From positions 1-5,153 of IMG/VR virus record IMGVR_UViG_2690316028_000001: a stretch of DNA of 5,153 nt. The stretch is one strand, 5' to 3'. This DNA is from a virus. Its lineage: Duplodnaviria > Heunggongvirae > Uroviricota > Caudoviricetes. Positions 2,098-5,153 of this stretch are shown one piece after another; the first letter of the stretch is position 1, and every line of letters begins with the position of its first letter. Made by a program: the position numbers and the translations under genes. The notes beneath the pieces were generated by a model, which worked only from the letters and a program-made list of their open reading frames with translations, was not told the origin of the DNA and ran no database searches.

Positions 2098-2234
2098 CAT
2101 TCGAATCCTACTTTGCTGATCATCTTCGTCTGCGATGGACTCGGTTACGCATCTATCGTCACCCGGGTTCATTTGCTACGGACTACCGAATACTGAAGAA
2201 TTACGTGAAAACTTATGCTGGAGAAGCGCTATGA
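2094..2234 (+). CDS. ylcG: Small basic protein, 46 aa, YlcG-like (DLP12 rusA-Q intergenic ORF)
   Basis: Not in the ORF track. ATG 2094 overlaps the rusA stop (ATGA) and its TGA at 2232-2234 overlaps the Q ATG (ATGA). Translation [46 protein letters not shown]. Same size and position as DLP12 ylcG. Confidence 0.5.
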
Positions 2235-3061
2235 ACCTTGAAAACACAGTGAAATACCACTTCGCAAAATCCACGCTGATTAGCGATTCTCCGCGCGCTA
2301 CCGCCTCCGATTCACTGACCGGTACCGACATCATGGCGGCAATAGGCATGACTCAGGAACGCGCTGCTATGGGGTACAGTGCTTTCCTCGGCAAGATGGG
2401 CATAAGCAATAACGACCGGGATCGGGCTATCGGACTGCTGGCTGAGTACGCGATGACCAAATGTGACAAGGTTGCCGCGCTGCGTAAGTTGGATTTCGGG
2501 GTTAAGCCTCAGGTGATGTACCAGTTGGCCACCTTCGCATTTGAGGATTATTCCCGCAGCGCAGCCAGTGTAAAACGGTGCGATTGCTGCAACGGTGAGG
2601 GCTTTATTGATGCTGAGGTATTCAGTATGAAAACCAATACGCCGGCACATGCAAAAGAAATCATTAAGGCATCAAAAGCGTTTGGTTTGAAGGTGATACC
2701 TTCGCAGCACCAAAACAGGCGTGAGGTAAAAGAGATAACGCGCGTTCTCTGTCCTCAGTGCAAAGGGAAAAAAGCCATCAGTTGCGCATGTAGTGATTGC
2801 CGTGGCCGTGGGAAAGCGGTGAATCAGAAGGAAACGAAGCAGCAAGGCGTTCCAGTATTCAGCACCTGCAAGCGCTGTGGCGGTCGCGGATATGAGCGCA
2901 TCCCGTCAACTGAGGCCCACGCAGCTGTTTGCCAGATTACGGATGTAATCAGCCTGGATACGTGGAAGAAGTCCGTTAAACCGTTCTATGATCAGCTGAT
3001 TACGAAATTCGATATTGAAGAGGCATGGGCAGAAAACCAACTGAAACAAATAACACGATAA
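2231..3061 (+). CDS. Q: Late-gene antitermination protein Q (long Q family, Cys-rich zinc-finger region), 276 aa
   Basis: N-terminus [33 protein letters not shown]... resembles enterobacterial prophage Q proteins as I recall them. GGAG at 2220-2223 seven nt before ATG 2231. Four CxxCxG-type Cys pairs. Immediately followed by a PR'/tR'-like region and the lysis genes. The ORF-track start at 2135 has no RBS. Confidence 0.85.
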   Translation: MNLENTVKYHFAKSTLISDSPRATASDSLTGTDIMAAIGMTQERAAMGYSAFLGKMGISNNDRDRAIGLLAEYAMTKCDKVAALRKLDFGVKPQVMYQLATFAFEDYSRSAASVKRCDCCNGEGFIDAEVFSMKTNTPAHAKEIIKASKAFGLKVIPSQHQNRREVKEITRVLCPQCKGKKAISCACSDCRGRGKAVNQKETKQQGVPVFSTCKRCGGRGYERIPSTEAHAAVCQITDVISLDTWKKSVKPFYDQLITKFDIEEAWAENQLKQITR

Positions 3062-3087
3062 CGGCTATGGAAGTTAATTCCAGCTAT

Positions 3088-3125
3088 TTACTTTTCCCGA
3101 ATCTGTGTTAATTTTATCCCAACGA
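3088..3125 (+). promoter_or_regulatory. PR'-like late promoter with expected qut (Q-utilisation) site
   Basis: -35-like TTTACT at 3088-3093 and extended -10 TGtTAATTT at 3106-3114, followed by CAACGATGGGTTAATTCGCTCG, which closely resembles the lambda PR' initial transcribed/pause region as I recall it. Exact +1 not determinable here. Confidence 0.45.
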
Positions 3126-3317
3126 TGGGTTAATTCGCTCGTTGTGGTAGTGAGATAAAAAGAGGCGGCGCTTACTACCGATTCCGCCTAGTTGGTCACT
3201 TCGACGTATCGTCTGGAACTCCAACCATCGCAGGCTGAGAGGTCTGTAAAATGCAATCCCGAAACAGTTCGCAGGTAATAGTTAGAGCCTGCATAACGGT
3301 TTCGGGATTTTTTATTT
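3121..3317 (+). ncRNA. 6S-like short late leader transcript (PR' to tR')
   Basis: About 195 nt between the putative PR' start and the tR' U-tract, the length class of the lambda 6S RNA. The sequence looks near-identical to my recollection of the lambda PR'-tR' leader. Confidence 0.4.
3255..3317 (+). terminator. tR'-like intrinsic terminator (the terminator Q-modified RNAP reads through)
   Basis: Outer stem 3257-3265 with 3299-3307 (tcccgaaac / gtttcggga), inner stem gcagg 3271-3275 with cctgc 3288-3292, followed by TTTTTTATTT at 3308-3317. Confidence 0.7.
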
Positions 3318-3392
3318 GGGTCAGTCGTATAAAGGTCATTACGGAAGGCTGTTAACCTTCTTATCGTGGTTCGAGTCCACGCTGTCCCGCCA
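3318..3392 (+). tRNA. tRNA-Asn (anticodon GUU), phage-encoded
   Basis: Manual cloverleaf. Acceptor 3318-3324 with 3382-3388 (6/7 bp, one U-U mismatch), U8, D stem 3327-3330 with 3339-3342, GG in the D loop. Anticodon stem gaagg 3344-3348 with ccttc 3356-3360, loop CUGUUAA (anticodon 3351-3353). T arm cgtgg-TTCGAGT-ccacg (3365-3381), discriminator G3389, encoded CCA 3390-3392. Confidence 0.65.
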
Positions 3393-3442
3393 AATACCTA
3401 CCAGGACCATAAGAGCAAAAGCTCAACGCACTACCCTCTATT

Positions 3443-3468
3443 GCCCACCGCGCCGTGGGCTTTTTTAT
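3443..3468 (+). terminator. Intrinsic terminator downstream of the tRNA
   Basis: GC-rich stem gcccac 3443-3448 with gtgggc 3455-3460, 6-nt loop, followed by TTTTTTATT from 3461. Confidence 0.6.
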
Positions 3469-3574
3469 TGCAGGCCGCAGATATCATTTTCAGATGCCAT
3501 GTAGCAATCAGAGTCTGACGGCCTTTCCCCTACAAACACACACAGCACCATCCGGAAAATCGGAGGTGAGGCCT

Positions 3575-3898
3575 ATGATAATGCCATACAAACAAGATTT
3601 CATCGCTGCGCTACTTGCCGCCAAGGAGCAGGGTATTGGTGCAATGCTGGCTTTTATCATGGCGTATCTGCGTGGTCGCTATAACGGCGGCGCGGTAACA
3701 AAAACGCTAATTGATGCGCTGATGTGCGCGATGATTGCCTGGTTCGTTCGTGACCTTCTGGACTTTATCGGCCTGAGCAGCAACCTCGCCTACATAGCCA
3801 GCGTCTTTATTGGATACATCGGCACCGATTCGATCGGCAATCTTATTAAAAAACTTGCAGCAAAAAAGGCGGGAGTTGACGATGCAAACCAGTCCTGA
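3575..3898 (+). CDS. S: Class I holin, lambda S family, 107 aa
   Basis: Translation [39 protein letters not shown]...[22 protein letters not shown] is very close to my recollection of lambda S107 ([39 protein letters not shown]...). Dual in-frame starts ATG 3575 and ATG 3581 (Met1-Ile2-Met3); GGAGGTGAGG at 3562-3571. Confidence 0.9.
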
Positions 3899-4331
3899 CG
3901 GAATTGCTCTGATAAAAAAATTTGAAGGTTGTCGGCTGACTGCTTACCCCGACCCCGGAACGGGAGATGCGCCGTGGACCATCGGCTATGGCTGGACCCA
4001 TCCGGTTGACGGAAAGCCAGTAAAGCGCGGTATGACTATCGACCAGCAAACCGCTGACAGGCTTCTGAAAACAGGGCTTGTTGGTTATGAGAATGACGTG
4101 CTGAAAGTTGTCAGGGTGAAGCTGACACAAGGCCAGTTCGACGCACTGGTGTCGTTCGCTTACAACGTTGGGTCGCGTGCTCTTTCCACATCTACACTGC
4201 TGAAAAAGCTGAATGCTGGCGATATAAAAGGCGCGGCAGATGAATTTCTGCGCTGGAATAAATCAGGCGGAAAGGTGATGCCGGGGCTCACGAATCGCCG
4301 CAAGGCAGAGCGAGCTCTGTTCCTGTCATGA
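3882..4331 (+). CDS. Endolysin, GH24 phage lysozyme (P22 gp19-like), 149 aa
   Basis: N-terminus [24 protein letters not shown]...TIGYGWT and C-terminus ...[11 protein letters not shown] resemble P22 gp19 lysozyme (recalled), with the T4-lysozyme-type Glu-8aa-Asp...Thr catalytic arrangement. No signal or SAR sequence. GGGAG at 3871-3875 before ATG 3882; 17-nt overlap with the holin 3' end. Confidence 0.9.
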
Positions 4332-4801
4332 TTAGCGCACTGGTTAAGCGTTACTGGCTGCAGTTGCTGGTGCTGGCGTTAATCGGCGCACTGGCTTTCT
4401 TCGTGAACCACTACCGCGACAACGCCATCACCTACAAAGACCAGCGCGACAAAGCCACCAAAAGTCTCCGCCTGGCTAACGACACCATCAAAGACATGCA
4501 GACCCGTCAGCGCGATGTCGCTGCACTGGATGCCAAATACACGAAGGAATTGTCCGATGCTAAAAAGACCATTAACGATTTGCGTCGTGATGTCGATTCT
4601 GGCGCTAAACGGCTGCGCATCGCTGCAACCTGCCCTGGAGTGCCAAAAGCCACCTCCTCCACCGGCGTGGATGATGCAGGAGCCCCCGAACTTACTCCAG
4701 ACGCTCGACGGAATTATTTCGATCACCGGGACGGAATCGCAACCGCTGACAAAATGATTCGCGGCATGCAGGACTACATCAAAGAGCAGTGTCTTAAGTG
4801 A
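4328..4801 (+). CDS. Rz: Rz i-spanin (inner-membrane spanin subunit), 157 aa
   Basis: ATG 4328 overlaps the lysozyme stop (ATGA). Hydrophobic N-terminal segment ([17 protein letters not shown]) followed by a charged, coiled-coil-like periplasmic domain. Position and architecture are typical of Rz. Confidence 0.85.
4557..4757 (+). CDS. Rz1: Rz1 o-spanin (outer-membrane lipoprotein) embedded in the +1 frame of Rz, 66 aa
   Basis: [22 protein letters not shown] gives a lipoprotein signal with lipobox LNGC, followed by the proline-rich [13 protein letters not shown] (lambda Rz1 has [14 protein letters not shown] as recalled). AAGGA at 4543-4547 before ATG 4557. The ORF-track start at 4515 is upstream of the signal peptide and less likely. 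Confidence 0.8.
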
Positions 4802-4820
4802 TTCGTCACCCAAATAACAG

Positions 4821-4848
4821 AGCCTGACTTCGGTCGGGCTTTTTTATT
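4821..4848 (+). terminator. Intrinsic terminator after the lysis cassette
   Basis: Stem agcctgac 4821-4828 with gtcgggct 4833-4840 (8 bp, one U-G), TTCG tetraloop, then TTTTTTATT. Confidence 0.7.
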
Positions 4849-4872
4849 CCCAGAAGAAGCAGGAGAAGAAGC

Positions 4873-5073
4873 ATGTTAACAGTAAAAGTAATGTCGCCAG
4901 GTGGCGGTGAAGAGATTCATTGCGGGTTGAGTGTAGGGTTCAATCCGGGGCAGCAGAGCATCGCGGTATCGGGAATGGACAAAAATGTATTCCTGAAACC
5001 TGGCGAGGTCGCCTACGTGATGAACCAGAACGGGAAGACGGTATCTCGTTACGAGCATAATGACCGCCAGTAG
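4873..5073 (+). CDS. Hypothetical small protein, 66 aa, function unknown
   Basis: Strong RBS AGGAG at 4861-4865 seven nt before ATG 4873. Gly-rich soluble product (MLTVKVMSPGGGEEIHCGLSVGFNPGQQ...). No family recognised. Lies between the spanins and what would be the packaging genes. Confidence 0.45.
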   Translation: MLTVKVMSPGGGEEIHCGLSVGFNPGQQSIAVSGMDKNVFLKPGEVAYVMNQNGKTVSRYEHNDRQ

Positions 5074-5153
5074 CCATTCCAAAGCTCACCTGCTGGTGGG
5101 CTTGATAATGGATATCCCCCTGAGCGGATAAATCAAAAATAACCCCTGCAACG

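Follow-up and report, generated by a model that had tools for sequence, protein, structure and literature searches.

Morons, reportedly defined by Hendrix and colleagues and said to include lambda bor, lom and the HK97/HK022 morons, are extra small genes that lie at module junctions of the late region, are variably present and are bounded by transcription signals. Acb2/Tad1 and Tad2 sponges are small soluble phage proteins. Q-modified RNA polymerase reading through terminators is established lambda biology, and tRNA arrays are known counter-defence regions. For most small phage genes no function has been established; the strongest candidates for host-interaction or counter-defence factors are those that unrelated phage lineages share in conserved form. 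Terminators that are read through within the late operon have been described in P22-like phages (PMC8022706). The tRNA-rich region of the T5-like phage SP15 was found experimentally to be unnecessary under laboratory conditions and to encode counter-defence functions (PMC11555353; preprint 10.1101/2023.03.15.532788), exerted via tRNA-Tyr and ORF75/Rad (Azam et al., PMC11555353). In the PeSL cassettes of T4-type phages, repeated and oriented intergenic stem-loops flank small accessory ORFs (Arbiol et al. 2010, PMC2839356).

The window, as we call the whole 5153-base stretch of DNA analysed here, spans the junction of the early and late operons in a lambdoid prophage, from the rightmost early genes into the first late ones. 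Behind its lysis cassette lies a gene for a 66-aa protein that belongs, as an uncharacterised new member, with the accessory genes known from phage late regions. Existing annotation calls the product hypothetical, and its family, phrog_3909, has no assigned function. New here is a covarying RNA hairpin of ~40 nt that closes many unrelated small late-region genes, and the anatomy of the cassette is the most informative new result; conservation across lineages, an unmatched fold and the repeated hairpin at the gene boundary add to the interest of the locus.

Like morons, the gene is a small, variably present addition at a late-region module junction with transcription signals at its borders. It differs from them in that no promoter was detected, its terminator lies upstream and not downstream, its predicted product is cytoplasmic and not an envelope protein, and its family resides mainly in lytic phages. 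With the SP15-type tRNA-rich region it shares a T5-like homolog, which sits at the edge of that region and adjoins the last tRNA gene; Rad, however, is a 189-aa Toprim-like protein to which the homolog has no similarity. As in PeSL cassettes, repeated oriented stem-loops flank small accessory ORFs, and, as with PeSL, REP and T7 RNase III hairpins, the element coincides with homology break-points between related phages. Unlike PeSL, it holds no consistent promoter element (some copies read TGTGATAAT) and its sequence is unrelated, and, unlike REP, it is not associated with a RAYT-type transposase or integrase. The Acb2/Tad1 and Tad2 sponges resemble the product in being small and soluble, and genes of their families lie in the same accessory zone or further downstream, but the product matches neither family.

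Genomic context

The features of the window to which we refer are as follows.

848-1285: NinB
Listed between NinB and the Q-type antiterminator: NinE, YbcO and RusA genes
2231..3061, plus strand: Q-type late antiterminator (Pfam Antiterm PF03589, E 2e-44)
3318..3392, plus strand: tRNA-Asn(GUU) at the 5' end of the late operon (ARAGORN; Rfam tRNA, 55 bits)
3443-3460, plus strand: terminator after tRNA-Asn (terminator scan)
3575..4801, plus strand: lysis cassette overall
3575-3898, plus strand: holin S (Pfam Phage_holin_3_1)
3882-4331, plus strand: endolysin (Pfam Phage_lysozyme)
4328-4801, plus strand: i-spanin Rz (Pfam Phage_lysis)
~4557-4757, plus strand: o-spanin Rz1, embedded in Rz (frame in the ORF list, lipobox LNGC)
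4819..4848, plus strand: predicted intrinsic terminator (stem 4819-4842, 10 pairs, loop TTCG, T run to ~4848)
4849..4872, plus strand: purine-rich leader CCCAGAAGAAGCAGGAGAAGAAGC with Shine-Dalgarno AGGAG at 4861-4865 (read from the sequence)
4873..5073, plus strand: 66-aa protein-coding gene of the phrog_3909 family (ATG start, stop included)
5074..5111, plus strand: bipartite RNA hairpin (outer helix 5074-5078/5107-5111, inner helix 5082-5090/5095-5103, loop 5091-5094)

The window is mosaic: at most 71% of it occurs at a single site in any complete E. coli genome. Its Q-to-holin spacer (3062-3470) contains a long hairpin with a T run (~3262-3316), the tRNA-Asn gene and a second terminator, similar to the arrangement of late promoter, tR' and tRNA in phages L and Sf6 (PMC8022706). 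In related prophages, three or four tRNA genes take the place of tRNA-Asn (locus L001, 6750-7058).

The position of the 66-aa gene in lambdoid prophages of Enterobacterales is always the same, after the spanin and before the packaging genes, and the modules on both sides of it change. The identical protein is paired with holin families 3_1, 3_3 and 2_1, and holin_8 also occurs in the prophages; the flanking spanins are either Rz or DUF2570/DUF7940; the packaging modules found with the identical protein are Nu1/A, Terminase_2/6, Terminase_4/TerL and DUF2280, and the packaging types downstream in prophages are lambda Nu1/A, P22-type, HK97-type and DUF2280. In some E. coli genomes (hits H22-H25) the end of Rz and the terminator are as here and the ORF is absent. 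Because the flanking modules vary freely and the ORF is missing from some otherwise matching genomes, the gene is accessory cargo at a module junction, which is what a first-pass annotation had claimed for the interval between spanins and packaging genes: it is variably present, among at least three holin, two spanin and four terminase types.

Other genes share this accessory zone. Klebsiella prophages carry an Acb2/Tad1-hairpin-family gene ~750 nt upstream, and E. coli prophages carry a Tad2-like gene further downstream. A related locus (L104) has a lipoprotein-like ORF (MKKLLFAALIGVSALTITAC...) at ~4869-5330 in the zone; envelope morons and cytoplasmic small-gene cassettes thus coexist between spanin and terminase.

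Coding evidence

The ORF starts with an ATG and has 66 codons on the plus strand. The first-pass annotation, which gave it the span 4873-5082, had its start right; the true end is 5073, and 5082 is where a 68-aa minus-strand ORF with a TTG start (4876-5082) ends. The same annotation described a strong RBS, which we find as AGGAG at 4861-4865, 7 nt 5' of the ATG, and a Gly-rich product, which holds in moderation (9/66 residues, 13.6% Gly).

The homology and structure search that had been proposed for the product was run and gave a match to phrog_3909 (E 8e-37) and no convincing match to a solved structure. At E 8.1e-37, the phrog_3909 match is full-length, with residues 1-63 on positions 1-63 of a 64-position profile (PHROGs v4). 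Homologs form 164 clusters in a collection of 5.8 billion proteins, all of them named "hypothetical", and the identical protein is annotated in RefSeq as WP_000958715.1, "hypothetical protein", in E. coli MS 115-1 and other strains. Across 52 pairs from 16 distinct coding sequences, the median dN/dS is 0.05 and no pair exceeds 0.20; many homolog pairs are close to saturation at synonymous sites. The full-length family match, the 164 clusters and the low dN/dS are far beyond chance, and the ORF is therefore a genuine, strongly conserved phage gene. It is conserved in syntenic prophages, and its family is one of no assigned function and not a known late-region protein, two points on which the first-pass claim of a small accessory gene might have failed. 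Residues M1, K5, G11, E13, N24, L41, A47, V49, G54 and S58 are invariant among 80 relatives, and the near-invariance of the N-terminal MLTVK fixes the start codon.

The 68-aa ORF on the opposite strand is present in the window, and in more distant homologs (Yersinia, T5-like, Mydo) every antisense frame is interrupted, each by 3-6 stops; it is a shadow ORF.

Protein family and predicted fold

AlphaFold2, run on an alignment of 80 sequences, returns a confident all-beta model (pLDDT 95.5, pTM 0.81) that has six strands and lacks helices. The protein has a mass of 7 kDa and a pI of 6.7, against a family median of 5.7-6.0, and its most hydrophobic 19-residue window reaches 0.5 on the Kyte-Doolittle scale. 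The sole Cys, residue 17, falls in the motif IHCGL and is not preceded by a hydrophobic leader, and we found no signal peptide, lipobox or transmembrane or other hydrophobic segment. Given the pI values and the lack of a hydrophobic segment, the protein is predicted to be soluble and cytoplasmic, not bor-like, and not a typical nucleic-acid binder.

Foldseek with the model found no match in the PDB, and a fold search of BFVD retrieved uncharacterised phage proteins only (Av-05, Serbin, ZL19, Rtp and others). Pfam (even at E <= 10), NCBIfam and PADLOC gave no match to the protein, lax thresholds included, and the Acb2_Tad1_hairpin and Tad2-like Pfam and PADLOC-DB HMMs matched the neighbouring genes alone. 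Literature searches on WP_000958715.1, phrog_3909, the peptide string and DUF2560 found nothing relevant, and phrog_3909 does not appear in the supplements of an anti-defence machine-learning preprint.

Profile searches of 1.8 billion representatives place the protein in a wider superfamily of 60-100-aa proteins that share MLTVK...G.E...YVMN..GKT(V/I)..Y. In this superfamily N51 is invariant and M1, T3, K5, G11, E13, G54 and T56 are nearly so; the best 120 matches of the superfamily profile are all hypothetical and free of Pfam domains. One distant member lies on a lytic-phage contig among small early ORFs that adjoin HNH, Dam, ThyX and primase-helicase genes. On a further IMG/VR contig (L213), a 127-aa protein starts with MFTVK and ends in ...GDQVYVMNSHGSTIETVK, and is followed by the repeated hairpin described below (minus strand, start at 1086 in reverse-complement coordinates); it looks like a superfamily member with a large central insertion.

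Several candidate relatives were discarded or found no support in sequence. WD40 sequence matches in the PDB amount to ~3 bits per stretch, summed over 7-9 identical blades of designer proteins, and the fold search disagrees with that assignment (Foldseek TM 0.31); multi-stretch matches to giant repeat proteins in the representative search are likewise sums of ~3-bit matches over identical repeats. The name "FHA domain-containing protein" on one cluster member could not be reproduced by an FHA profile or structure match. T4 Dmd (PDB 5hy3_B), the antitoxin of the RNases RnlA and LsoA, came up as a fold lead and is not backed by sequence, with an hhalign probability of 0.1% and no BLASTP alignment. 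A YaeO/Rof (Rho inhibitor) fold has no sequence support and structural matches at noise level, and an Hfq/Sm-like identity failed in both fold and sequence comparison, with structural similarity again at noise level.

Distribution among phages

The ORF occurs in ~14 of 5426 complete E. coli genomes, and its exact sequence is indexed in 2367 blocks of public assemblies; members of its cluster are common in Enterobacter, Klebsiella and Raoultella. Using tblastn, we found 253 phage records that carry the gene, ~240 of which are T5-like Demerecviridae that infect Klebsiella, Salmonella and Escherichia and encode proteins of 60-75% amino-acid identity. Mydo-like myoviruses (~145 kb) carry it at 78% amino-acid identity, and it is also present in the lambdoid phages Fraca and ST13-OXA48phi12.2.

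The homologs of lytic phages sit in tRNA gene arrays. In SP15 the homolog (E0157_058, 28293-28487; L013) comes after tRNA-Ile and is followed by another gene, not a tRNA; in Sugarland it lies between tRNA-Thr and tRNA-Trp (L014); and in Mydo it lies between tRNA-Pro and tRNA-Arg, within ~2 kb of the spanin and TerL genes. The gene was not present in the T5 genome, in which the slot between tRNA-Ile and the acetyltransferase-like T5.056 (L015, 28038-28286) holds tRNA-Met and a 27-codon ORF, T5.057. The T5 and SP15 slots show a gene-for-tRNA replacement within the tRNA-rich region. A near-identical copy of the gene is also found in Klebsiella phage vB_Kpn_AM_K4 (PP355766.1, L017; 288,685 bp, filed under Straboviridae), the tRNA region of which has the gene order of the T5-like Sugarland; it is possible that the record joins two phage genomes.

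Upstream terminator and expression

We compared the anatomy of the cassette over 110 gene-carrying loci. The element at 4819-4848 has the GC-rich stem-loop, the U tract and the compensating changes of an intrinsic terminator, and is predicted to be one. It bears out the earlier description of a strong terminator before the ORF: a 10-pair stem followed by a T run, with a dG of -17.6 kcal/mol for the stem at 4819-4842 and a z of -5.0 against shuffles. Of 36 distinct upstream flanks from temperate loci, 35 have a terminator at this position; these use 20 different 5'-arm strings with compensating stems and span dG -11.5 to -17.6. In temperate loci T5-7 follows, and then the leader ATTMCCAGAAG(AAG)CAGGAGAAGAAGC-ATG; the leader at 4849-4872 is nearly identical across all temperate loci and unpaired in the centroid fold. 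Homology between loci on the upstream side ends in or beside the terminator.

The first-pass annotation had left two routes of expression, an own promoter or antiterminated read-through, and had proposed promoter prediction over 4800-4872. A consensus scan of the plus strand from 3000 to 5153 found no sigma-70-like site, hence nothing promoter-like in 4800-4872, and the T run and the ATG are separated by just 24 nt. These two observations speak against the first route and favour the second: with no promoter-like site found, expression most likely needs Q-antiterminated read-through, and we consider it highly probable that this is a real late-operon accessory gene expressed in that way.

A sub-threshold match to Rfam isrJ (RF01393; 27.2 bits against a gathering score of 37) at 4773-4843 runs from the final Rz codons through the spacer and the terminator. 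The similarity to IsrJ is largely a shared terminator class: the terminator of IsrJ, an sRNA of Salmonella Gifsy-1 (AGCCTCGC-CATCGT-GCGGGG) is of the same class as those upstream of the target gene in other loci. To judge from the match, a 3'-end-derived sRNA could be made here. The 62-aa ORF of Gifsy-1 IsrI (PMC2330248) is not a homolog, and Gifsy-1 lacks the family.

A repeated hairpin closes the cassette

Directly after the stop codon, positions 5074-5111 fold into a hairpin, a slightly degenerate instance of an element that recurs in late regions. Its energy is dG -20.4 (z -4.3) on the plus strand and -14.9 on the minus strand, where the fold is weaker because of G.U pairs. The same element stands 3' of the ORF in nearly all temperate loci, ~2-3 nt past the stop. 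Across loci, the outer helix reads (G/C)CATTA:TAATG(C/G) and is followed by a 2x2 internal loop, and the inner helix has 9-10 pairs, with many compensating variants, and a loop of 3-4 nt; most copies have a dG between -17 and -27 and a z between -4 and -9. A U tract is lacking, and the terminator scan made no call there. In consensus, the element reads CATTACAG-stem-loop-stem-YGATAATG, is ~40 nt long and is strand-specific.

With a covariance model we detected one to four copies per temperate locus, scoring up to 68 bits on the plus strand against ~30 for the palindromic shadow; the degenerate copy of the window falls below listing at E <= 0.01, and no copies were found in the lytic phages that carry the gene, in T5 or in Gifsy-1. 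Over 33 distinct copies, 97% of cells are paired and 8 of 17 pairs show compensatory changes, in an alignment that was derived from the model and hence leans towards it; none of 500 shuffles scored as high, and slid controls pair at 33-56%. Copies are sometimes arrayed at a spacing of ~310-330 nt; those in L104 lie at 4201-4241, 4533-4574, 4845-4885 and 5588-5632, and those in L027 at 5292-5332, 6533-6574 and 6845-6885.

The element is not tied to one gene. Copies stand 0-8 nt after the stops of at least seven unrelated small genes, among them DUF2560/phrog_571, phrog_5415, phrog_1935/8618, phrog_9518, phrog_1761 and phrog_6978, none with an assigned function. An exact-pattern scan found it in at least 120 further viral contigs, of which just 6 have the target gene, and ~30 clusters of candidate ORFs, including spanins and a few that look like chance ORFs, have their end no more than 8 nt before a copy. 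Rfam holds no family for it. Homology from phage to phage stops right after ...GATAATG, the 3' end of the hairpin.

Multiple oriented copies, a covarying stem-loop and intergenic positions make this a repeated intercistronic hairpin. By comparison with known elements it is best read as an intercistronic RNA element that would act in processing or as a 3' stabiliser, and, by analogy with PeSL (PMC2839356), REP and T7 RNase III sites, as one that also marks recombination joints. Other identities were set aside. A promoter inside the hairpin, with GATAAT as its -10, would need a consistent -35 or TG extension, and across copies neither was present; no consistent -35/-10 pair was seen in the copies. 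A mini-ORF from the ATG of GATAATG was dropped, as its length and sequence are not conserved. The outer helix (CATTAC...GATAATG) does not have the cores RYYYAAC ... GTTRRRY of an integron attC, and no integrase was called in the late regions that carry the cassette.

Proposed role and alternatives

The cassette is made up of the predicted intrinsic terminator, a conserved leader that is unstructured and bears a strong Shine-Dalgarno sequence, the ORF and the conserved RNA hairpin. We propose that ordinary transcription would stop at the upstream terminator, which would thereby block spurious transcription in the lysogen; Q-modified RNA polymerase coming from the late promoter would read through, and the gene would be made only then. 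Since only the modified polymerase would reach it, the gene would be a late lytic one, expressed together with the lysis and head genes. More tentatively, the protein may act in the cytoplasm of the infected cell, where it would bind a small ligand or some conserved component of the host or of a defence system, with counter-defence or host take-over, and not a change of the lysogen, as the outcome. We place its action there because temperate lambdoid, T5-like and Mydo-like phages of Enterobacterales all maintain near-identical versions of the protein under strong purifying selection. That the product serves the phage in infection is more likely than that it serves the lysogen, to judge from the retention of the family in obligately lytic phages, its placement in early and tRNA regions, the counter-defence functions of such a tRNA-rich region in SP15 and the nearby Acb2/Tad1-hairpin-family gene of Klebsiella prophages. 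The anti-retron study of SP15 gives no data on the homolog (28293-28487), since by primer mapping it lies outside the tested fragments (29889-38135). Taken as a whole, a promoter-less late-operon accessory cassette, expressed by late read-through and with a host or defence partner in infection, is the account we favour, at a little short of an even chance; that the product is a counter-defence factor or a binder of a host target is a more speculative assignment, plausible rather than probable.

A classical moron or lysogenic-conversion gene, bor-style, would have a promoter of its own, active in the repressed prophage, and would benefit the lysogen. The spanin-to-terminase slot is one in which morons accumulate, the gene's presence there is variable, the upstream terminator insulates it from its neighbours, and a related locus has a lipoprotein-like ORF in the same zone. 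The junction and the variable presence are as expected of a moron, whereas we found neither an own sigma-70 promoter, for which there is no room between T run and Shine-Dalgarno sequence and no promoter-like site on the plus strand, nor a canonical factor-independent terminator downstream. The product, moreover, appears cytoplasmic and has none of the signal peptide, lipobox or hydrophobic segment that the first-pass suggestion of a bor-like or lysogenic-conversion gene would lead one to expect, and the majority of its homologs, ~250, are in obligately lytic T5-like and Mydo-like phages, in which lysogenic conversion is meaningless. We regard this explanation as improbable and give up the bor-like suggestion.

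Equally improbable, in our estimate, is an RNA-binding or regulatory protein that acts on the structured RNA beside its gene, the 3' hairpin in prophages and tRNAs or their precursors in lytic phages, with possible roles in mRNA stability, processing or the protection of tRNAs from anticodon nucleases. A stable RNA structure does follow the stop within 0-4 nt (the hairpin in temperate loci, tRNA-Arg in Mydo, tRNA-Trp in Sugarland), and the small all-beta fold bears a faint similarity to Hfq and YaeO/Rof. Those structural matches, however, are at noise level, the pI is near-neutral to acidic (6.7 here, lower in the family median), and the SP15 gene precedes another gene and not a tRNA. The same hairpin also stands behind 7 or more unrelated genes in the target loci and ~30 ORF clusters elsewhere; being common to many unrelated genes, it is not a private operator.

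Slightly less probable still is an auxiliary lysis or packaging factor, for example one for lysis timing or a terminase accessory. Its place directly after the spanins in every lambdoid prophage, the proximity of the Mydo copy to the spanin and TerL genes and co-expression with the late genes under the read-through model would suit such a role. Against it, the gene combines freely with unrelated lysis and packaging modules, most lambdoid prophages do without it, as the ~14 carriers among the complete E. coli genomes illustrate, and the T5-like copy lies in a tRNA-rich region that the corresponding literature treats as dispensable. That the ORF is non-functional, either a chance ORF or the shadow of a real antisense gene, might be thought of given its shortness and the overlapping opposite-strand ORF of similar length, but it is refuted by the dN/dS of 0.05 at saturated synonymous sites, the conserved start and full-length phrog match, and the interrupted antisense frame in homologs, which reduce its probability to almost nothing.

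Returning to the read-through cassette, we also considered a bolder version, in which a new kind of counter-defence or host take-over factor and an undescribed intercistronic hairpin occur jointly. The factor would be common to temperate and virulent phages and may, for instance, be a small beta-sandwich protein that captures a nucleotide signal or inhibits a conserved defence or host protein of Enterobacterales, and the hairpin may process or stabilise late mRNA and serve as a recombination joint that shuffles promoter-less cassettes from one lambdoid phage to another with no integrase. As a conjunction, this version is rather unlikely.

The family is useful in that it is 60-78% identical between lambdoid and T5-like/Mydo-like phages under strong purifying selection, has a confident predicted fold with no solved relative, adjoins tRNA arrays and lies near Acb2/Tad1-like genes. 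With these four properties, it is a well-defined target that could be screened cheaply, by deletion and by expression, against libraries of defence systems. The repeated hairpin, for its part, offers a testable handle on the exchange and expression of accessory genes in lambdoid late operons.

Sequence beyond the hairpin

The last stretch of the window, 5104-5153, and its continuation in a related prophage (L001, 9405-9500) contain GATAAT-like hexamers and inverted repeats of the form TTATCC-N8-GGATAA; in the window, the inverted repeat 3' of the hairpin reads GGATATCCCC...GCGGATAA. In relatives, TGATAATGGTTATCC resembles the 7-1-7 motif of a Fur box, and in phage Fraca a gene further downstream is annotated as "Fur regulated protein". 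From their sequence and position, the repeats at 5104-5153 are a possible operator or promoter of the next gene.
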